Notes: generated by a model from the letters alone, not told the origin. Counted from the stretch's first letter, positions 3,766-60,758 are shown. The stretch is 64,000 bases of DNA from Elsinoe ampelina (GCA_010093995.1 ML992503.1:1293234-1357233); one strand, 5' to 3'. Made by a program: numbers and translations.

Positions 3766-5540
3766 ATGTACAAGACGGGGAATATCTATGTCATCACGGC
3801 CATCTCCATTATTGGAGGTGCGCTGTTTGGCTTTGATATCTCGTCCATTTCGGCGATTATCGCGACGCAGTCGTACAGATGTTATTTCAATCAGCAGGGT
3901 TTAGACGATGCTGGACAGTGTCTGGGGCCTCGGCCTGATGTGCAGGGTGGTATCACGGCGTCTATGGCGGGTGGTTCGTGGTTGGGTGCGCTCATCTCGG
4001 GCCTGATTTCGGATTACTTTGGTCGTAAGACTACGATTCAGATTGGGGCTGTTATCTGGTGGGTGGACACATTCAGAGGGTACTATTCGGATGACTTTGC
4101 TGACAGTGAGTAGGATCATCGGCTCTGTCATCTCCGCCGCCAGTCAGAACATCGCCATGCTCATCGTGGGTCGTATCATCAACGGTCTCTGCGTGGGGAT
4201 CTGCTCGGCGCAAGTCCCTGTCTACATCGCTGAGATTGCGCCTCCCTCCAAGCGAGGCAGACTCATTGGCGCTCAGGTATGCAGCTTTGATGACTACCAG
4301 TACAGAGACTGCTGACTAGTCTCCAGCAATGGGCCATCACTTGGGGTATCATGATCATGTTCTACATCAGCTACGGCTGTGCCGCGACACTGACAGACGA
4401 CCGGGTCTTCCGCATCCCATGGGGTGTCCAAGCTGTCCCCGGTTTCTTGCTTCTGATCGGCATGTTCATCCTTCCAGAATCGCCCCGTTGGCTGGCAAGC
4501 AAAGACCGCTGGGAGGAATGCGAATCAGTACTTGCCCTCACCCACGGCATGGGCGACAAGAATAGCCCATTCGTCCGCCGCGAGTTCGAGGACATTCGCG
4601 AATGGGTCAGGTTGGAGAAGGAGGCTGCCAGCGTTTCCTACCTGGAGCTCTTCAAGCCTCGCATGATCAACCGCACACACATTGGTCTCTTCACTCAGAT
4701 CTGGTCTCAGTTGACGGGTATGAATGTTATGATGTACTACATCACGTGAGTCCATCTATATATTGTATCTCCACGTCCATCCCACTAACCACCACTAGCT
4801 ACGTCTTCGCCATGGCCGGCTTGACCTCAAACGCCAACCTCCTCGCATCCTCGATCCAGTACGTCATCAACGTAGTCATGACCGTCCCCGCCCTCCTCTT
4901 CATGGACCGCTGGGGTCGTCGCCCTACACTTCTCGTCGGCGCCGCCCTGATGGCCACCTGGCTCTTCGCCAACGCCGGCATCCTCGGTCGTTACGGAACC
5001 TACCCCGGCCCAGGCGGTGTAGGTGGCATCCCCGAAGCTTCGACGGAAGTACGAGGCGCTGCCTCCAAAGCCGTCATCGCCTGCTCCTACCTCTTCGTCG
5101 CCTCATACGCCCCAACCTGGGGACCCGTCTCCTGGACTTACCCACCAGAGCTCTTCCCCAACCGTGTCCGTGGCAAGGCCGTCGCGCTCGCTACCTCCGG
5201 TAACTGGGCATTCAACTTCGCTCTAGGCTACTTTGTCCCTCCGGCTTTTGTCAACATCCGTTGGCAGGTGTACATCATCTTTGGCGTTTTTTGCGTGGCC
5301 ATGTTCGTCCATGTCTATTTCATGTTCCCGGAGACGGCTGGAAAGCGTCTTGAAGAGGTCACTGAGATCTTTGAGGATCCTAATGGACTGCCATATATCG
5401 GAACACCGGCTTGGAAGACCAGAAACACTTGGGGTGCTGCAAGGGCTATGGAGAAGACTGGACATGGGTTGGAGAAGACGCTCAGCAACGATCACAGTCC
5501 GGAGAGGCATGAGACTACTGCTACGAAGGATATGGTTTAG
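3766..5540 (+). CDS. HGT1: MFS sugar porter, HGT1-like high-affinity glucose transporter; introns 4059-4113, 4277-4326, 4746-4798
   Basis: GGALFGFDISS, DYFGRK, GRIINGLCVG, PVYIAEIAPPSKRG, PESPRWL, QLTGMNVMMYY, DRWGRR and PETAGKRLEE motifs; three GT-AG introns join the ORF pieces in frame. Confidence 0.9.
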
Positions 5541-6598: not shown

Positions 6599-6850
6599 GA
6601 AAGGGGGATGGTATGGCGGTGTTCTGTGTAGGATGTGTGTCTGGTCGGAGGACGGGCATAGTGCTGCTGTTACTAGTGCTTTCAGGCTGTCGAAGCCGGC
6701 GAGCTGGAAGTGCGGGACAGTGGCGTCAGATGCCAGCACATAGTCGACGTAGCACACAATGGCATGTGAAAGACATACTCACGTGAGGGTGTCGAGCTTC
6801 TCTCACCTTCTCGATTCACCTTCAGCCCTCCTCCTTCACCGTTTGCGTTT

Positions 6851-7706
6851 ATGGACTACGACGATTACACAGATTGGTCATCAGCAAACACCATCGCACA
6901 AGAGATCATTGATATGATGGAGCCCAGTAAGTGCCCCGTGTTGTGTGCTCCATGTTCAGACTCACATCGTTCCAGTTCAGCGCACCCCGACCAAGACGTA
7001 CATGGCAGTCTACCTCAAAGATGAAGTCGACTACGTCAGCGTCGACCGCGCCACACTAGCGTCGACAAATCTCCTCTCGTACAGCGTGAGCGAAAAGGTA
7101 ATTGAACTGAACTCTGTCCCCAAAGCCGCTTTCGACGTTTTCCTCAACTGGGCCAATGGAGAGGATCCGAAGACCTGCGTTGAGACTGGATCGAACACTG
7201 GTGATATCGGCTACTTTCTTATCGACCTCTGGAAGTTCAAGGATCTGGTCGGGAACAAGTTCCACACCGCTGTCGTCCACGGCGTGGCCTCGTACCTCCT
7301 CAGGTACCGCGGACTCACAAGCAGCGATCTGGTCTCCATCAACCAGATCTTCTACAAGCAAGACAGCGAGTTTCACCACCTCAAAGTCATGGTCTGTGAC
7401 TGGATCATCAAGAAGAATCTGGTGCAGTACGATGATGAGGCGCTGATCAGGACTGTGAGGAAGGCTCCCCTGGCTGGAGCTTACATCATCAGGAGGATGA
7501 ATGAGGATCCAAAGTGGTTGGAGAAGCGCAAGGAGAGGTTGAAGAGCCACTTGGGCGACAAGGAAGAGAATTCACCAGCAAAGAAAGGACCTATCAGCCC
7601 AGAACCCTTTCAAGACGTTCCTGTGTCGGCGCAGAAGGGCAAGGGATTCAGGTCGGTTTCGATGACCACAGAGCCAGGCGGAGGGAACAGTCCGGCATTC
7701 ATATGA
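6851..7706 (+). CDS. Divergent BTB/POZ-like protein; intron 6927-6975
   Basis: ATG 6851 exon joins ORF 6945-7706 in frame through GTAAGT..CTCAC..CAG; VIELNSVPKAAFDVFLNW and LIDLWKF are BTB-like. Confidence 0.65.
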
Positions 7707-8199
7707 GTGGTAGTCATTGCCACAACTTACTACCAGAAGACGACCCGTCTGGTAGTATTTGAGCGGGATGGGCGCATGGTTCGATCCAGATAGGCATAGC
7801 AAATAGCAATGAAGCCACTTTGCAGTGTCTGGGAAGGATATCTCGACCTCGGCTAGAGCTACCTGTGCTCGGCTGTACCTGCCACTGCTCGCGCCACCTA
7901 AGTCACCACACCTGTAGTTTAACTTCACTCAGTCGACGTGCGGTGAGTTATTGCAGTACCTTGACTACATGCTTATGATATAGACCAAGTAGGTCGATCT
8001 TCAATGACCACGGGTCACGTGGCTTCGTGGTGTTGAAGAAGCGAATCTCACATGGTGACTTGACTTCATGTTTGCTTTTTCTTGGGCTCAGATACCCATC
8101 TCGAGTCACAAATGAGATGGCGTCTACATCCGTGTAGCTCAGCCTCAGAGAAATCATCATAGCATTGTCGAACTATTGCAATCAGATCTCTACAACAAC

Positions 8200-9632
8200 G
8201 ATGGGAGGTCAATCGCTACGTCGTCGCCCGCTGAGGCGAGATACGCCAGTCGGACGGCGAAGATCTACTCCAAAGGACTCTTCCATTCCGCGTGAAGATA
8301 CGGCGACGGATACCCAGACGATCAACAATGTCCAAAATGTTGACGCTTCCGCCATCCAAGAGTCACAAACATCGCCTGCCCCATTCGCATTCCAGTATGA
8401 TAACGGCCAAGGCACAACGTCAAGCACTCCATCGACGGAACAATATTCCACGCCAATGGCGGAAGCTTTTCACGCGGAACAGTATCCGCCAATCGAATGG
8501 GATATATCAACTCCCGAAGACCCCCCTCATCCACCGCGTAAAAGGGTCAAGACCACTCGCACGATCCACGATGTTGAAAGCATTGATGAACTCGGCCATG
8601 AATATCCAGGAACTTCGACCAGTTCATCGGCGATCCAGCATGACAGTGCATATGGTATTGCATCAAACACTCCACCAGGCGCAACAATTAACCTTACGAC
8701 CGAGCTTGATGCTCCTCCCGAAGCTTCCATATCGGCTGACTTTCTTCCCGATATCCCAACCCAAGCTCCCTTACCCGCCAGTCTTCTCCCAGTGAAGGCA
8801 GTCGAGCCAACACCACGCACCAGCACCGCGTCCCTGACCATCCGCCACCTCACGTACGTCACCCCTCCTCCACCCCCCCAGCCCCGTCACTAACAACCCC
8901 AGCCACAACCCCACCCAAGACTACATCACCATCATCGCCGGCGCCTCCATCCTCAACTCCACCGCGCTCATCCTCGCCCACCGCCCCAGCCTCACCCTCC
9001 TCTCCCCCTTCTTCACCCACCTCCTCGGCCCCCACCCCCCGGGCCCCCTCACGGTACACCTCCCCTCCGAACCCCCCTCCCTCATCGCCTCCTACATCGA
9101 CTTCACCCACTCCCACGTCCTCCCCTCCACCCTCCTCCCCATCTCCACCGGCCTCTCCACGACCTTCAAACACCTCGCTTCCATGTGGGTCTTCGGCGCA
9201 AAGACCTCCTCCGCGACCTTCTGCAACGCCATCGTCGACCGCATCATGTTGCTCCGCGTCATGGCCGAGGACGAACGTCTCGCGCCGGGCATGGGTAAGG
9301 GGTGGGACGAGGATACGTGGGGTTACATGGATGGTATCGCGCCGCTGGCGGGGAGGGTGGAAGGCGGGAATAAGTTGAGGATGTTGGTGAGGGAGTGGTT
9401 TTCCAGGGAGGTCAAGAGGGCCACGGGCGAGAGGTTGAGGTGGAGTAATGAGGGGCTTTGGAAGGCGATGCAGGAGGCGGACAAGGTCGGGGTGAGGTGG
9501 GAGGTGGATGGGAGGGCGGTGGGTGGGAGGCTCGCGGGGCCTGGGGAGGTGGAGTTGGGGAAGTATCATGTTAGGGAGGAGTGGTTGGGGGGTGGGGAGG
9601 TGGAGGTGAGTGTTGAACAGGGAATGATGTGA
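8200..9632 (+). CDS. Protein with disordered N-terminus and BTB/POZ-like domain; intron 8854-8902
   Basis: Intron GTACGT..CTAAC..CAG joins ORF 8165-8893 to the frame of 9183-9632, giving LAHRPSLTLLSPFF..VHLPSEPPSLIASYIDF..LASMWVFGAK..FCNAIVDRI, a fungal BTB pattern. Confidence 0.7.
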
Positions 9633-53400: not shown

Positions 53401-53570
53401 TGCTGGGGGTGTTCATCATTGGTTTGCTTGGGCCCAAAGGATCAATCGTGTTTCAACGAGACCGTGTTTCCTTGTTATGACTATTGTAACTGGCTTGGCT
53501 CCCCGTGTTGGGATTACCACTGTGGTGATAATCGGAATGAGGGAGGCAGATGGGAGGGCATGGGGTATAT

Positions 53571-54033
53571 TGTCACGAACCGTCCAAACACAGCCCACGC
53601 TAGTGGTCTGAGCTAAGCCGAGAACGAGGTAGTTCTGCTTCTATAGCAGTATAGCACTAAGGTAAGAGTCGGAGAAGGTATGTCTTGCAGATAATAAAGT
53701 ACGATTAGATAGTATTGCAAAGGCTAGCCTTAGCAATACTAGTGTTTGCTATCTAGACAAGGTTAACTATAGTACTTATATAAGGTAAGGACTGCTCCTA
53801 TATACATGTGTTCTTTACTATGTACTCTATGTGCTCTATATACTCCGTGGCAAGAGTCGGAGGCAACATAGAGTATATATCCGCTAGTAACCTATATACT
53901 CTATAGTCCCTAGAGTAGAGCTACTAGAGAAGATAGAGAACTAGGTAAATGTTAGGCTAGGTCACGTAATAACCCTAGTAGTTTAATTAGTCCTAGCGTC
54001 CCTACGCTTTAGCTGTCCTACTAGTTTGTAATA
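53571..54033 (-). repeat. 3' LTR (463 bp)
   Basis: Colinear with 60065-60527, differing by C/T and G/A transitions; adjacent to the PPT (minus strand AAGGGAGGAGAG). Confidence 0.93.
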
Positions 54034-54107
54034 TTACTCTCCTCCCTTAATTAAGTTATTCTAACAAGTAAGTATCCTTTCTTGTCCTTATGCGCTATAT
54101 ACTAAAT

Positions 54108-54656
54108 ATGCCTCCTAGTTGTCGAAGGCATAGTAAATCTAGTATATCTATACGAAAGAACCTCTTAAAGTTTATTAAATTGTTTAGAACTAACATACTA
54201 TAAGCTTGCTCTTGTTATAAGTTAAAAGAGTTAGACTATAAAGTCTATATTCGGTTAGGTATTTATAGCTAGTGTATCGTAAGTAACTACTTAGGTTATA
54301 ATATTTAGGTAATAAAATTAGAATAGTAGCGTCTCTAGTCTAAGTATATTTATTTGTAAAAGGAATTAGTTATAGCTAAGGCTACTAGAAAGAAAGCTAA
54401 AGAAGCTTATAAAAAGGCAAAAGAGACTTATTAAAAAGCTATAGGCAATAAGCTTTACCTATATAAAGAGATATAAAAGTTAAAGGACAAGGTAGAGGAA
54501 GTAATCTCTCTAGAAGAGACTCGTATTTAAGTCCTAGAGTAGGAGGAAATACTATTATTAGTGAATCCTGTCCTACTATAAGACTAGTAATTATTTATGC
54601 TTAACTCTAATTAGAGTTCCTTACTTAGCAACGATTAAGGTACTTCTATTAGTTAA
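54108..54656 (+). pseudogene. RIP-mutated antisense accessory ORF of the retrotransposon: Zn(II)2Cys6-like cluster plus coiled coil
   Basis: One frame from ATG 54108; Cys or TAT(from TGT) codons at 54207, 54216, 54237, 54264, 54273, 54297 give C-x2-C-x6-C-x8-C-x2-C-x7-C; all internal stops are TAA/TAG; K/E/A-rich helix follows. End point uncertain. Confidence 0.7.
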
Positions 54657-57600
54657 GTAATCTTCCTTAGGCGTCCTTGTTTTTGTTTAGTATTTAGAGT
54701 GCTAGGTCTATCTAGTTAGTTTACTTAGGATAGGTTCTTAATCTAGTAATCTAAGATTACTTACAAGGTAAGGTACTTCTCTAGTTTCTATATTACTTCG
54801 CTATACTAATGTCCCTTCTAGTAAATAAGATAGTAGCGTTTTTCTTTTATAAGTTTATAACGTAAAACTCTTTCGATCTTATACTATAGCTTCTATATTT
54901 CTTTATCTAGTTCGATAGGTCCGGGTATAGTATTCTATAGTACTTTCTCTAGTAGAGATATATAAAAGACTAGATAAATCCTTATATGTCTTAGTAGTTC
55001 TAGTTTGTATACGTTCTTGTTTTTCTTTTCTAGGATCTTAAAGAGTCCTAGCTTAGTATAGTTAAGTTTCTTACTTAGTTACTTTGTTTTAATATTTTTA
55101 CTAAGGAGGTAAACTTTCTCTCTCTCCTATAGAATTAGTTCTATAATTCTCTTCTAGTTAGCAAACTCTACTATTCTCTATAATATAAATACTATATCGT
55201 AGTATAGCTAGTTATATAGTTTCTTAATGTTAGCTACTAGTATATTAGCGTCCTTAGATATTAGCTTAATTCTAAGTGTATTATAGTATAGATCTAGGTA
55301 TATTCTATAGTTTATATAGAATAGTAAAATTCTATTTACTAACTTTCTATTATTAATAGCGAGCTCTACGAGTAGTAATAGTATCGCCTATAAGTCTTAC
55401 TTATAGTTTAGATAGTATTGTAGGTACTACTCTAGTACTTAATTTGCCCGTTTAGTTTGTCTATCTATCTATAGATAAAAGGAGGTTAATAGCTTATGTT
55501 TAACTCCTATTAGATCCATAAATAATTACTAGAATTATGATGTAAATAGCTTATCCCTATTAGTTATTAAGTCTCGTAGTACTCTATGTTATAAAACAAT
55601 TGTTCGGAGAAAGGTAAAGGCTATATCCTCGGTAGTTACTATTGTCTTATATAGTACAAAGTAGTAATACTTTATAAATCTATCTATTAGGACTAGAATA
55701 CTATTATACTTTACACCTATAAGAGGTTCTTCTAATAGTAGTAAAGGTTCTATAAAGTCTATTATAACCGATTACTATAGTTTATCTAGTAGTAGTAAGA
55801 GTTATAATAGGCTATATAGCTTATATTATAAGTACTTAGACTTGTAGCATATATTGTATGTAGTAATATATGTCTTAATATTGTTTCGAAGTCCTTTCTA
55901 TAGGTAGTTTTGTGTAATAAGTTTAATAGTCTTATTAATCCCGCTATGCCCTACTATTAGGTTATTATAGTGCATTTAAATAACTTCTTTCTTCTATTCT
56001 TATATAAGCTTCTAGGTAAGGCTATATAACTACTCTACCTTCGGGTACTTATAGACTAGAGCGCTGTCTTACTACTTTAGTATAGAGGCCTCTATTATTG
56101 TTATATTCTTTAAGTAATCTAGTTATCGGCTAAGAGCGTCTACTCTACTGTTCTCTAATCCCTTAATATAGTAGATCTAAAAGTTGTAGCTTATAAGTGT
56201 TTCTAACTATCGAATCTATTGTCTATTAAGAACCTTAGTTATTGTCTAATATAATAGGTTCTTATAGTTAGTGTAGACTTACATAGGTAAAGTTGTTCCT
56301 TCTAGGTATACTCTCTATTCGTAGAATGCCTCTATAATCGTAAGTAACTCTTTGTCGTATATATCGTAGTTAAGTTTAGGTCTAGTTATTTTTTATAAGT
56401 AATATACAATTAGGTAGCGTTATTCTTCTACGTTCTTCTACGCTAGATACGCTTCTATTATAAAGTCTAAGGCATCTATTTCTAGTAGTGCTTATTAGTC
56501 TAGGTCGAAGAGTACTAGGATAGGTACTATTATAAGTCTAAGCTTTAGCTCCTTAAAGGCTTACTTATATTTCTTATTAAAGACAAATCTAGTTTCTTTC
56601 TTTATAAGGTTAGATATTAGCGTAGCTACCTTAGAGAATCCTTTAACAAACTTATAATAGTAGTTAAAGAACTCTAGTAGCGCTTAAACCTCCTTAACTA
56701 TAGTAGGTTCTAGCTAGTTATTTACTAACTCGATCTTTTTTAAGTCGGGTCTAATGCTATTAGTAGATATAACATAGCTTAGAAATTGTATCTTATGTTT
56801 ATAAAACTTATACTTAAAGAGCTTTACTAGTAAGTCTTTTTCTTTTAGTTTCTATAGTACTTTATAAATATGTCCTACGTGTTTATTATATATCTTTAAG
56901 AAAATAACAATATTGTCTAAATATACTAAGATAAAGTTATTAAGGTATTCTTATAGAGTATTATTAATTAACTCTTAGAAGGTTATAGGAGCGTTAGTTA
57001 ACCTAAAGGGTATAACGAGGTACTTATATAGACTCTATTACGTCCTAAAAGCCGTCTTTTACTCCTTGCTCTCCTTTATTTATACTTAATAATAGACATT
57101 CCTAATGTTAATTATAGTAAACTATTTAGCTCTAAGTAGTCGGTCTTAAAGTTTATTAATCCTTAGTAGGGGATAGTAATTCTTCCTAGTAAGTGTATTA
57201 AGTTTCTAGTAATTAATATATATTTATAATGTCTTATCCTTTTTAGGTATAAAAAGTACTCCGTGCGTAATAGGTAATTTTAATAGTCGTATAAATCCTT
57301 TAAGTAAGTACTTATCGATGTAGTTCTTAAGGATATTCTTCTCTTGTTTTAATAGTAGTATAAGACCTTAATAGTGTATTAGGGATTTACTCTCTTTAAA
57401 GAGTATTTTATAATTCTATAGTTTATATTAGAGTAAGGCTACGATACCTTCCCTTTCTTTAAACAAGTCCTTAAAGTCTTTATATTCTAGCGGAAGTGCT
57501 TAATTACTTACGCTAGCGATAGCTCTAACTATTAGTCGTATCTATATTGTCCTTATAGTTAGTATCTGCGGAGCTAATTATACTCTCTATGTTCTATAAT

Positions 57601-58023
57601 TACACTTAGGGAATTCGAGTGTTTCTTTAATCTAGTCTATGTCTAGATTGTATTATTAAAGCTAGTCTATACTAAGTACTATATTGTACTATATGTCTAC
57701 TATATCGATTAATCGTTTTTCTATATATGTTTTAATTTTAATTATAACGTTTTATAGTTCCTAAGTAACTTTCCTATCCTTCCCTATAGAGGTTCTATCC
57801 GCTATAGTAAGTAGGTAAGGTAACTCCTTCTAGTGTTAATAAGGTTTAAGCTAATTAGTAACTATTATAGAGACGTAGCTATAGTTAGCTCCTAAATCTA
57901 TTATTGCTCTTACCTTACTCTCTTATATTTCGACTTCTAGTATAAAGTAGTTTAACGTGTAGCTCTTTATTATATTAAGGCTTTAGCTAGTGTTATTATT
58001 CTACCTTATTAGGCAATAACTAG
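54653..58023 (-). pseudogene. RIP-degenerate pol (protease, RT, RNase H, integrase, chromodomain)
   Basis: AIIDLGA (~57890-57910), KNYYPLLRI (~57160-57185), KTAFRT (~57041-57059), VYLDNI (~56909-56926), NYDIYDKELLTII (~56340-56372), GLFKI..YKLEL..IYLVFYISLLE (~54950-55050), YKIERVL..YYLIY*KGH (54767-54883). Confidence 0.9.
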
Positions 58024-60064
58024 CTAGTTTTTTGTTATTATAGCTCCTTAGATAAGTAGCTAATCCCTTCCTACACGTATCTACTATTAGTACTATATCT
58101 ATTAGGCAAGTTGTATTTTGTCGCTATTTGACATAGTAAGGTAAAATTCTAGCGCCTAAGTCCCTTAGTAACTATAAAGTCTAATAATTCTCTACTAGTT
58201 ACACTAAGTAGTATTATACACCTATATTAGTATAACTATTTCTTCTAGGTATAGCTAGGCGTTAGTATTAAAGACAAAAACAAGTTATATAGATTTATCT
58301 TATTATGTCCTATTCTAGTAGTAGGTGTATATTATTATATAATTCCTCTATATCCCTGTAAGGTATGCTTTAAGTCGTCTACCTAGTAGTAGTACGTCGT
58401 TGTTGTTGTTATTATTATTAGATAAGTTCTTATCTATGTTATTACATTATAGTTGTTTAGTGTATTCTTCGTTATATTTCTCTTCGTCGCTACTACCTCT
58501 AGCATAGTTATAGTTAGTAAGGCTATACTAAGTATATTCTCTTACTTAGCTATAGGGGATAGTACTACCTATTTTAATTACTAAGAAGTCTATAGTGTAT
58601 TTAAGACTAATAGCCTCTTCTCTAAGTATATTATGTAAGTAGATAGTATAGTACTATTTGTAATTTAGATTTATATATTTCTAAAGCGATATATAATATA
58701 CCTTTCCTTATAGTTTGCTATAAGAGCTAAAGGTAAGGCTACTATATTATTATATAGCGCTTATGTCCTAATACTTCGTCTTAATAATCGTATATTAGTA
58801 ATTGTCGCTAACTACCTTCTAAGGTTAGTTACTATTACTACTAATTATAGAGAGCTCTTCTAGGTCAAGTTTCTAGTCTAGCTATTTCGTTAGTTGCCTA
58901 CGCTTAGACGGCTTATATAGGAACTAACTAGATCCCTACTTGTCTAATAAGTAAATATAACAAGAGTTATTATAATATACTATCTATAATAGCATTACGT
59001 ATTAGCTTTGTTATTTACTATTAGTTATAGAGATATTAAGTATAACATCTAAAGAGGATTCTACTACCTCTCGAGTTATTATAGACTTCTTCTATATTTC
59101 CTTACCTACGCTAAAGGTTATTAGGTCTTCTATAGTAGTATTAGCCTTTTTCTCTACTAGCCTAGTAACTATTNNNNNNNNNNNNNNNNNNNNNNNNNNN
59201 NNNNNNNNNNNNNNNNNNNNNNNNNNNNNNNNNNNNNNNNNNNNNNNNNNNNNNNNNNNNNNNNNNNNNNNNNNNNNNNNNNNNNNNNNNNNNNNNNNNN
59301 NNNNNNNNNNNNNNNNNNNNNNNNNNNNNNNNNNNNNNNNNNNNNNNNNNNNNNNNNNNNNNNNNNNNNNNNNNNNNNNNNNNNNNNNNNNNNNNNNNNN
59401 NNNNNNNNNNNNNNNNNNNNNNNNNNNNNNNNNNNNNNNNNNNNNNNNNNNNNNNNNNNNNNNNNNNNNNNNNNNNNNNNNNNNNNNNNNNNNNNNNNNN
59501 NNNNNNNNNNNNNNNNNNNNNNNNNNNNNNNNNNNNNNNNNNNNNNNNNNNNNNNNNNNNNNNNNNNNNNNNNNNNNNNNNNNNNNNNNNNNNNNNNNNN
59601 NNNNNNNNNNNNNNNNNNNNNNNNNNNNNNNNNNNNNNNNNNNNNNNNNNNNNNNNNNNNNNNNNNNNNNNNNNNNNNNNNNNNNNNNNNNNNNNNNNNN
59701 NNNNNNNNNNNNNNNNNNNNNNNNNNNNNNNNNNNNNNNNNNNNNNNNNNNNNNNNNNNNNNNNNNNNNNNNNNNNNNNNNNNNNNNNNNNNNNNNNNNN
59801 NNNNNNNNNNNNNNNNNNNNNNNNNNNNNNNNNNNNNNNNNNNNNNNNNNNNNNNNNNNNNNNNNNNNNNNNNNNNNNNNNNNNNNNNNNNNNNNNNNNN
59901 NNNNNNNNNNNNNNNNNNNNNNNNNNNNNNNNNNNNNNNNNNNNNNNNNNNNNNNNNNNNNNNNNNNNNNNNNNNNNNNNNNNNNNNNNNNNNNNNNNGT
60001 AACTTAGAGCAAGAGTTACTTATTAACCTTATAGCGTGCTATACTATAGTAAGAGTAGTTAAAA
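58024..60064 (-). pseudogene. gag region and leader (RIP-degenerate, interrupted by assembly gap)
   Basis: Lies between the 5' LTR and protease; ends in AAAAAAC-TAG (58033-58024); no clear gag motif could be read. Confidence 0.55.
59174..59998. other. Assembly gap (825 N) inside the retrotransposon
   Basis: Run of N. Confidence 1.
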
Positions 60065-60527
60065 TGTTATAAACTATCTAAATATAGCCTATGCTAGTAG
60101 TCTAAGCTAAGCTAAGAACGAGGTAGTTCTACTTCTATAGTAGTATAGCACTAAGGTAAGAGTTAGAGAAGGTATGTCTTATAGATAATAAAGTACAATT
60201 AGATAGTATTATAAAGGCTAGCCTTAGTAATACTAGTGTTTACTATCTAGACAAGGTTAACTATAGTACTTACATAAGGTAAGGACTACTCCTATATATA
60301 TGTGTTCTTCACTACGTACTCTATGTGCTCTATGTGCTCCGTGGCGAGAGTCGGGGGCAATATAGAGTACACGTCCGCTAGTAACCTACGTGCTCTGTGG
60401 TCCCCGGGGCAGAGCCGCTAGAGAAGACAGAGAACCGGGTAAACGTCGGGCCAGGTCACGTGATAACCCTGGCAGTTTGATTGGTCCTGGCGTCCCCGCG
60501 CTTCAGCTGTCCTGCTGGTTCGTAACA
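60065..60527 (-). repeat. 5' LTR (463 bp)
   Basis: Matches 53571-54033; ends GGTTCGTAACA followed by the TATAT TSD. Confidence 0.93.
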
Positions 60528-60758
60528 TATATATACGGTGGTCTTTTGCTTTGTGGGACTGCATGAGTCAAAATCATACTTTGCTTTCCGTAAACTATAC
60601 TTTCTCCTTCTCGCCTCGATACTCCACTATCCGAAAGAAGATGCCCTGTCCTACAAGCGTAGTATGCCCGTACGTGATCCTGAATGTTGTACCCGCTATG
60701 CTTTATAACAGCCACTTGCGCAGTGGCGCTGCATGCCACATTCGACCGACCTCCAACC

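Follow-up and report, generated by a model that had tools for sequence, protein, structure and literature searches.

The closest precedent for the gene described here is brtn, which Boty-like elements of Botrytis and Sclerotinia carry in antisense orientation (Zhao et al. 2011, Virology 417:248, as cited in PMC8365987, PMC7264820, PMC4227169 and PMC5987419). The passages citing that study state that the function of brtn is unknown, and a transcript from Monilinia is described as resembling truncated Pol and BRTN alike. Our subject is a degraded long terminal repeat (LTR) retrotransposon of Elsinoe ampelina and an antisense open reading frame (ORF) at its 3' end. The element lies in a stretch of 64,000 nucleotides (GCA_010093995.1 ML992503.1:1293234-1357233), which we call the window and whose coordinates are used throughout. 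The frame, hereafter aORF, occupies positions 54108-54656 on the plus strand, opposite gag-pol.

Like aORF, brtn lies between pol and the 3' LTR as an additional gene running antisense to gag-pol, and its host element, about 6.4 kb long, is a fungal chromodomain-bearing gypsy element like that of the window. This likeness, as far as the citing passages go, is one of position and description, and neither a zinc cluster nor a coiled coil is mentioned for brtn in those passages. Our database searches yielded neither a BRTN sequence nor that name. An initial annotation of the window, made by a model from the sequence alone, had treated the gene as possibly new. As regards an antisense gene as such, this view does not hold, since brtn of Boty-like elements has been published before.

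Plant LTR retrotransposons (Grande, RIRE2, Retand and PvRetro13) also carry antisense ORFs between pol and the 3' LTR. According to the passages of PMC7264820 available to us, these ORFs share position and orientation with the fungal ones and show conservation within families; a nuclear location is reported for some, and a part in regulation has been proposed. Compared by description, they differ from the fungal gene in belonging to another kingdom and in having no recognised DNA-binding fold (PMC7264820). For fungal elements, a figure legend in a 2010 survey lists an 'additional ORF with unknown function' (PMC2864245). A full-text literature search, with most subscription journals outside its reach, did not bring up any publication in which a retrotransposon ORF is associated with a zinc binuclear cluster. 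Outside fungi and plants, the initial annotation had pointed to human T-cell leukaemia virus type 1 (HTLV-1), in which HBZ, a basic leucine zipper (bZIP) protein, is made from an antisense transcript starting in the 3' LTR. In both cases a small protein with a DNA-binding region (putative in the fungal one) and a coiled coil is encoded antisense beside the 3' LTR of a retroelement. However, fold and lineage are unrelated and the antisense promoter of the fungal gene is a presumed one; we would regard the comparison as an analogy only, with no relationship implied.

The frame at 54108-54656 is almost certainly a copy, killed by repeat-induced point mutation (RIP), of a real element-borne gene. 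That gene is an antisense accessory ORF of about 185 codons that is located between pol and the polypurine tract (PPT) and is conserved in a large clade of ascomycete Ty3/gypsy chromoviruses. It is real, widespread and unannotated, and its copy in the window is dead. The frame comprises 183 codons including the last stop, without any frameshift, and its ATG lies 75 nt from the 3' LTR; sequence, position and orientation are as the initial annotation had quoted them. Its 17 stops consist of nine TAA and eight TAG codons, with no TGA. Six codons form a putative zinc-cluster pattern (54207-54299, plus strand). Two of them have retained Cys (TGC at 54207 and TGT at 54273) and four are Tyr codons TAT (at 54216, 54237, 54264 and 54297), which the initial annotation had reverted to Cys. 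A six-position pattern of 'Cys or TAT' is found once in 5.5 kb read in six frames.

Taken alone, the frame and its Cys/TAT pattern argue only weakly for a gene, and several results speak against one and for a chance frame in AT-rich, RIPped noncoding DNA. Within this block, a density of 17 stops in 183 codons is nothing unusual (mean 19.5, sd 5.7), 38% of the segments compared having no more than 17. The 'Cys or TAT' pattern occurred at least once in 4.3% of 300 Markov-simulated 5.5-kb blocks, and a Pfam scan of the frame as it stands, with stops read as X or Q, gave no Zn_clus match. Direct blastn and tblastn searches of the interval against 78 loci with a related pol returned nothing useful (best tblastn E 6.6), so that homology to relatives is detectable only through ORF inspection and a profile.

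The 78 loci were obtained by scanning metagenome contigs with an alignment of the polyproteins P0001 and P0002, and their pol is 41-74% identical to P0001. The latter, a 1054-aa polyprotein whose source is named Elsinoe fawcettii, is the closest intact relative of the window pol, with 58% identity despite RIP. In the closest locus (L001), an intact ORF of 207 codons directly follows pol on the opposite strand, its Cys residues spaced C-x2-C-x6-C-x8-C-x2-C-x8-C and its ATG located about 100 nt from the LTR. When six-frame ORFs of all 78 loci were searched for the six-Cys pattern, 49 of the 50 matches lay on the strand opposite pol. Of the 60 pol C-termini followed by at least 500 nt of sequence, 48 had an antisense six-Cys ORF of at least 60 codons no more than 1.5 kb away. 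A family hidden Markov model (HMM) found the gene in 59 of the 78 loci, with 68 of 69 domains antisense, and recovered it in 11 of the 12 loci that the strict Cys pattern had missed. This leaves L074 as the sole case among the 60 testable pol ends in which neither the Cys pattern nor the family HMM detected an antisense gene. The other loci without an HMM match mostly have no downstream sequence.

Complete related ORFs mostly measure 150-240 codons, and shorter, truncated or degraded copies are present as well. Their stops are found between -148 and +396 nt from the end of the pol match, and the distance from Met to the Cys motif is mostly 22-40 residues (range 22-77; five loci have no Met before the motif). 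An exhaustive profile search of 1.84 billion representative proteins retrieved 2246 sequences at E<=0.001, of which 1093 remained at E<=1e-10 and 68 at E<=1e-30; the family thus comprises 1093 clusters (50% identity) at the intermediate threshold. Nearly all of the matches are 140-310 aa long and align from end to end. The nearest clusters in a protein atlas are unnamed and come from Ascomycota. No precomputed Pfam domain was present on any of the 33 and 46 proteins from two word-indexed searches, and the only name given to them was 'hypothetical protein'. Five of the metagenome contigs (L001, L006, L009, L021 and L078) contain tandem or circularly permuted pol-aORF-LTR-gag units with a repeat spacing of 5.7-6.5 kb; these may represent arrays that share LTRs, circles with one LTR or collapsed assemblies.

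The window copy clearly belongs to this family. The family HMM, built without the window sequence, matches 54108-54548 starting at profile position 1, and no other domain in the six frames of the 64-kb window has a positive score. Scored as a protein by itself, the frame reaches 19.0 bits, whereas 3000 frames of matching composition simulated by a Markov model gave 2.0 at most; none of the remaining non-overlapping frames of the RIP block scores above -1.1. A phmmer search of about 250 proteins matched the frame to its closest intact relative, P0152, at E 4.9e-21. The Cys spacing of P0152, C-x2-C-x6-C-x8-C-x2-C-x7-C, is identical to the one that had been reconstructed for the window. In an alignment with 31 relatives (A2), the window is the sole row with Tyr at C36, C43, C52 and C64, and its two Cys occupy the remaining two Cys columns. 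All six Cys are invariant in the 29 relatives of a further alignment (A5); across 150 family representatives four are invariant and two are conserved at 90% or more. Intact relatives thus carry Cys, not Tyr, at all four reconstructed positions and have an open antisense frame in the interval, so that the proposal has withstood the refuting condition named in the initial annotation.

The other differences between the window and its relatives bear the marks of RIP as well. The stops align to columns occupied by Q, W or R, and further changes are RIP-like (His-to-Tyr, Ser-to-Leu, Gly-to-Ser and Asp-to-Asn). In other copies from the same organism, codon 84, a TAA in the window, reads CGA at about 75% of the depth, among the 40 variant rows listed, of which 22 lie inside the ORF and none covers the middle letter of the four TAT codons (54217, 54238, 54265 and 54298). 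The conserved 'MP' N-terminus of the family aligns to the ATG at 54108, which speaks against the spliced, earlier start (GTAAGT..TAG, 54068-54118) that had been considered initially. Downstream of the six-Cys segment, positions 54315-54548 (plus strand) align to HMM positions of about 66-134 and represent the remnant of a long-helix, coiled-coil region.

The HMM match, the simulations, the similarity to P0152 and the presence of the gene at the same place in the relatives rule out a chance frame of AT-rich noncoding DNA; on these sequence comparisons, we consider that explanation already refuted and give it next to no probability. Two other candidates were rejected as well. The frame is not explained by a C-terminal extension of pol or by a sense-strand ORF, for the intact P0001 pol ends at the end point of the window pol. 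A captured host gene beside the element was dismissed because the ORF lies inside the target-site duplication and is found at the same place in relatives.

A comparison of dN/dS between relatives had been proposed in the initial annotation. Four unsaturated pairs were informative, with dN/dS values of 0.05 (L015/L011, dS 0.66), 0.19 (L026/L062), 0.26 (L026/L028) and 0.37 (L028/L078b). The proportion of nonsynonymous differences was lower than that of synonymous ones (pN < pS) in 19 of 20 pairs, the exception being two adjacent copies on one contig with a dN/dS of 0.97. Since the ORF overlaps pol only at its last codons, the dN/dS values are not confounded by selection on pol. These codon comparisons point clearly to purifying selection on the antisense gene.

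We then turn to the encoded protein. The family satisfies the Cys spacing of the Zn_clus family (PF00172), C-x2-C-x6-C-x5-12-C-x2-C-x6-9-C. In a search of the family profile against 177,635 PDB sequences, the top matches were GAL4 (E 0.011, 0.012 and 0.025), LAC9 (0.052) and PUT3 (0.054), all of them marginal; HAP1 and LEU3 followed lower in the same list, and all six Cys were aligned in these matches. Zn_clus was the only Pfam family matched by more than four members, with 17 of 32 members at E<=1 (best 0.0013) and 17 of 150 at E<=0.01 (best 5.3e-4). When two structural models were compared by Foldseek, Zn2Cys6 structures made up 19 of the 24 and 22 of the 30 rows listed. Zn2Cys6 structures were the top matches by three different methods, GAL4, LAC9, PUT3 and HAP1 leading for the profile and the fold model taken together. 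The sequence and model comparisons together support the view that the six-Cys domain is a divergent relative of the Zn(II)2Cys6 cluster.

The AlphaFold model of the L001 protein (L001:4207-4827, minus strand), based on 54 sequences, had a mean predicted local distance difference test (pLDDT) value of 87; the other family model reached 81.5. In the L001 model, a helix at residues 11-25 is followed by two short helices (34-39 and 53-58, seen in the other model too), each of which opens at a CxxC, and then by a single helix of about 100 residues (70-170) with block-mean pLDDT values of 90-99. The tail, which we take to be disordered, is modelled with low confidence. The N-terminal helix of the family carries a nearly invariant Arg, and the family alignments show a conserved acidic, Trp-containing motif in the tail, which we take to be activation- or interaction-like.

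A homodimer is predicted to form through the long helix after the cluster. When two copies were modelled together with zinc, the ipSAE was 0.37, compared with 0.01 for the best control. In a microbial calibration, 21 of 30 solved homodimers but none of 23 monomers attained the ipSAE mark; in a eukaryote calibration, 17 of 29 homodimers and none of 30 monomers did so. Contact agreement between runs was at least 62% and partner pLDDT at least 75. The modelled interface covers residues 68-154 and is antiparallel (residue 83 faces residue 140), so that the two Cys domains would come to lie at opposite ends of the dimer, about 100 helix residues apart.

With the GAL4-type factors (Gal4, Lac9, Put3, Hap1, Leu3, Ppr1, Pho7 and Cep3), the family shares the six-Cys spacing, and they are its best matches in sequence and fold; a dimerising helix after the cluster, predicted for the family, is common to both. 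The family differs from them in several respects. It remains below the Pfam threshold and has an extra N-terminal helix, and its helix of about 100 residues is modelled as antiparallel whereas that of GAL4-type factors forms a short parallel coil. The protein is only about 190 aa long, without the 'fungal_trans' middle region, and its gene is transposon-borne, in contrast to the host-borne genes of GAL4-type factors. The initial annotation, which had proposed a GAL4-type cluster followed by a coiled coil, is thus upheld at the level of a divergent relative, by the Cys spacing, the long helix and the marginal GAL4-type matches, but not at the level of the Pfam Zn_clus cut-off.

What might such a protein do? 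ATG and LTR are separated by only 75 nt in the window and by about 100 nt in L001, which would place the antisense promoter within the 3' LTR or at its edge; the antisense transcript would start in, or just inside, that LTR. The product may be a dimeric, zinc-dependent, sequence-specific DNA-binding protein that regulates transcription from the element's own LTR, be it as an activator or as a repressor. The own LTR would be the most economical target. Zinc binding, DNA binding, target, promoter and sign of regulation are all deduced rather than observed. For the statement as a whole, that of an element-borne antisense gene whose DNA-binding product regulates the element's own LTRs, we see a modest balance in favour.

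Several observations weigh against this proposal. No member was seen to reach the Pfam gathering cut-off of 21 bits (L001: 12.9 bits, E 0.12), and the E values were marginal throughout, at least 0.45 in Foldseek and about 0.01-0.05 against PDB sequences. The weak fold scores may be explained by the six-Cys domain being too small to give strong ones. The residues between Cys2 and Cys3, which contact DNA in Gal4, are variable in the family, and basic residues are not conserved there. Furthermore, the homodimer model was built without our family alignment, and its antiparallel arrangement is unlike the short parallel coil of Gal4.

These points could also mean that the six-Cys domain does not bind DNA at all. 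It might be a structural or an RNA- or protein-binding factor in retrotransposition, for example in packaging or nuclear import, whose likeness to Zn2Cys6 proteins reflects a shared small zinc knot. Such a role would agree with the fact that every Zn2Cys6 similarity score is below threshold, with the missing conservation of basic residues between Cys2 and Cys3 and with a dimer model that does not resemble known Zn2Cys6 dimers. However, spacing, order and helical placement of the six Cys all match those of Zn2Cys6 clusters, and Zn2Cys6 structures come out on top by each of the three methods. We therefore regard a domain that does not bind DNA as rather improbable, and prefer the DNA-binding regulator.

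The proposal that the protein regulates its own LTR has a further difficulty, namely the variability of the gene. Adjacent copies on three contigs are 89-93% identical through pol, and this identity is lost exactly over the ORF body (L006, 2460-3018 versus 8741-9315; L009, 840-1701 versus 7081-8027; L021, 193-505 versus 6646-6949). Past the aORF ATG, L006 and L009 regain it over a short block. Among pairs from different contigs with a pol identity of at least 0.80, five of seven show the same collapse between the aORF stop and the block beyond the ATG (L028/L075, L026/L075, L021/L067, L015/L048 and L011/L048), with 83-92% DNA identity at their pol 3' ends. The closest pairs, L026/L028 and L011/L015, can be aligned right through the ORF, at about 84%; L078, too, aligns across it. 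Over 276 pairs, pol and aORF identities are barely correlated (Spearman 0.14); for example, a pol identity of 85% goes with an aORF identity of 26%. Between otherwise similar elements, the ORF body is far more variable than the flanking LTR edge, which is not obviously what one would expect of a protein recognising the LTR of its own element. Because silent sites cannot outpace the divergence of the flanks, exchange of the ORF between lineages is more likely, on these alignments, than fast point evolution. The data come from metagenome contigs and some of these might be chimeric, but chimerism would need breakpoints at the ORF borders every time.

This variability leads to the main rival, according to which the gene is real and element-borne but directed at the host. 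The protein could steer integration through host DNA or chromatin, or it could antagonise or titrate a silencing or RIP-related factor in an arms race. A hypervariable or swapped ORF body next to well-conserved pol 3' ends, and the poor correlation between pol and aORF identities, favour such a role, and the conserved acidic/Trp tail could serve as a protein-interaction motif. On the other hand, a module for targeting is already present in the integrase chromodomain, the protein has no known host partner, and lineage recombination without any conflict could produce the cassette pattern too; the case also depends on contigs that can be chimeric. A host-directed role appears unlikely to us, though clearly more plausible than a domain without DNA-binding activity, and regulation of the element's own LTRs is still our preferred explanation. 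A more far-reaching version would be that the ascomycete chromovirus clade encodes its own fungus-specific Zn2Cys6 transcription factor, expressed antisense from the 3' LTR and exchanged as a cassette, so that close relatives carry very different DNA-binding proteins. We put this forward tentatively, as a conjecture that we doubt somewhat more than we believe.

The element that harbors aORF accounts for the whole of an AT-rich block at about 53.6-60.5 kb of the window, in which the G+C content drops to about 30%, compared with about 52% in the surroundings. It is a single, RIP-degraded Ty3/gypsy chromovirus on the minus strand (53571-60527), flanked by a target-site duplication of the same five bases, TATAT, at 53566-53570 and 60528-60532. 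The 3' LTR (53571-54033, 463 nt, minus strand) is heavily RIPped and aligns without gaps to the 5' LTR (60065-60527, minus strand). Where the two LTRs differ (69 sites), the change is always a transition, in a CpA/TpG (39), CpG (28) or GG (2) context, and the TpA/ApT ratio is 1.89 in the element compared with 0.52 in the flank. CpG sites (28 of 69) have thus been affected nearly as often as CpA/TpG sites (39 of 69). The outer 190 nt or so of the 5' LTR (60340-60527) are nearly free of RIP changes, and the remaining element, compared here over 60065-60339, is saturated with them. The RIP boundary is sharp where the element meets single-copy DNA. Sequencing data from the same organism contain thousands of short contig pieces at least 80% alike, indicating that the element is highly repeated and that its other copies are RIPped too.

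The pol gene (54653-59173, minus strand) encodes protease, reverse transcriptase, RNase H, integrase and chromodomain and has RIP stops throughout. Pfam recognised RVT_1, RNase H, Integrase_H2C2 and the Tf2 SH3 domain in the minus-strand frame starting at 59173. The chromodomain was recognised by eye in the window, and PF00385 is listed by Pfam for the pol relatives. A run of N (59174-59998, 825 nt) occupies the expected site of gag and covers part of the gag region. With pol ending at about 54653 and the PPT at 54037-54048 (minus strand; its reverse complement is AAGGGAGGAGAG, after which come TAA and the LTR start), some 600 nt separate the two, in line with the initial description. Within this interval aORF and pol are arranged tail to tail and overlap only at the last codons of aORF.

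The junction of purine tract, TAA spacer and TGTTA at the LTR start is common to the window (54034-54052) and L001 (4905-4935), although the intervening DNA cannot be aligned. An E-box, CACGTG plus AT, is shared by the 5' LTR of the window (60457-62) and the LTR of L001, which has three copies of it within about 40 nt (about 5009-5045); the RIPped counterpart in the 3' LTR of the window lies at about 53963-53968. By its sequence this E-box looks like a conserved host site of the basic helix-loop-helix (bHLH) type, and we mention it as a candidate only.

LTR retrotransposons are usually described as wholly dependent on transcription factors of their hosts. Here, a very large element-borne gene family resembles a minimal Zn2Cys6 regulator. 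If BRTN belongs to this family, then the gene itself was known, and the new aspects are its fold, its range and its behaviour as a cassette. In either case the family merits a profile model, as current annotation misses its genes or calls them orphan host proteins. The example also illustrates that real genes can be recovered from dead copies by reading RIP backwards. Should the protein bind DNA, fungal chromoviruses would possess a regulatory gene of the accessory kind, comparable to what complex retroviruses have, and the variability of the cassette would point to changing specificity or to conflict with the host. If, beyond that, the elements do encode their own transcription factor, they would be self-regulating, retrovirus-like 'complex' retrotransposons, and they could act as a source or a sink for the large Zn2Cys6 repertoire of their hosts.

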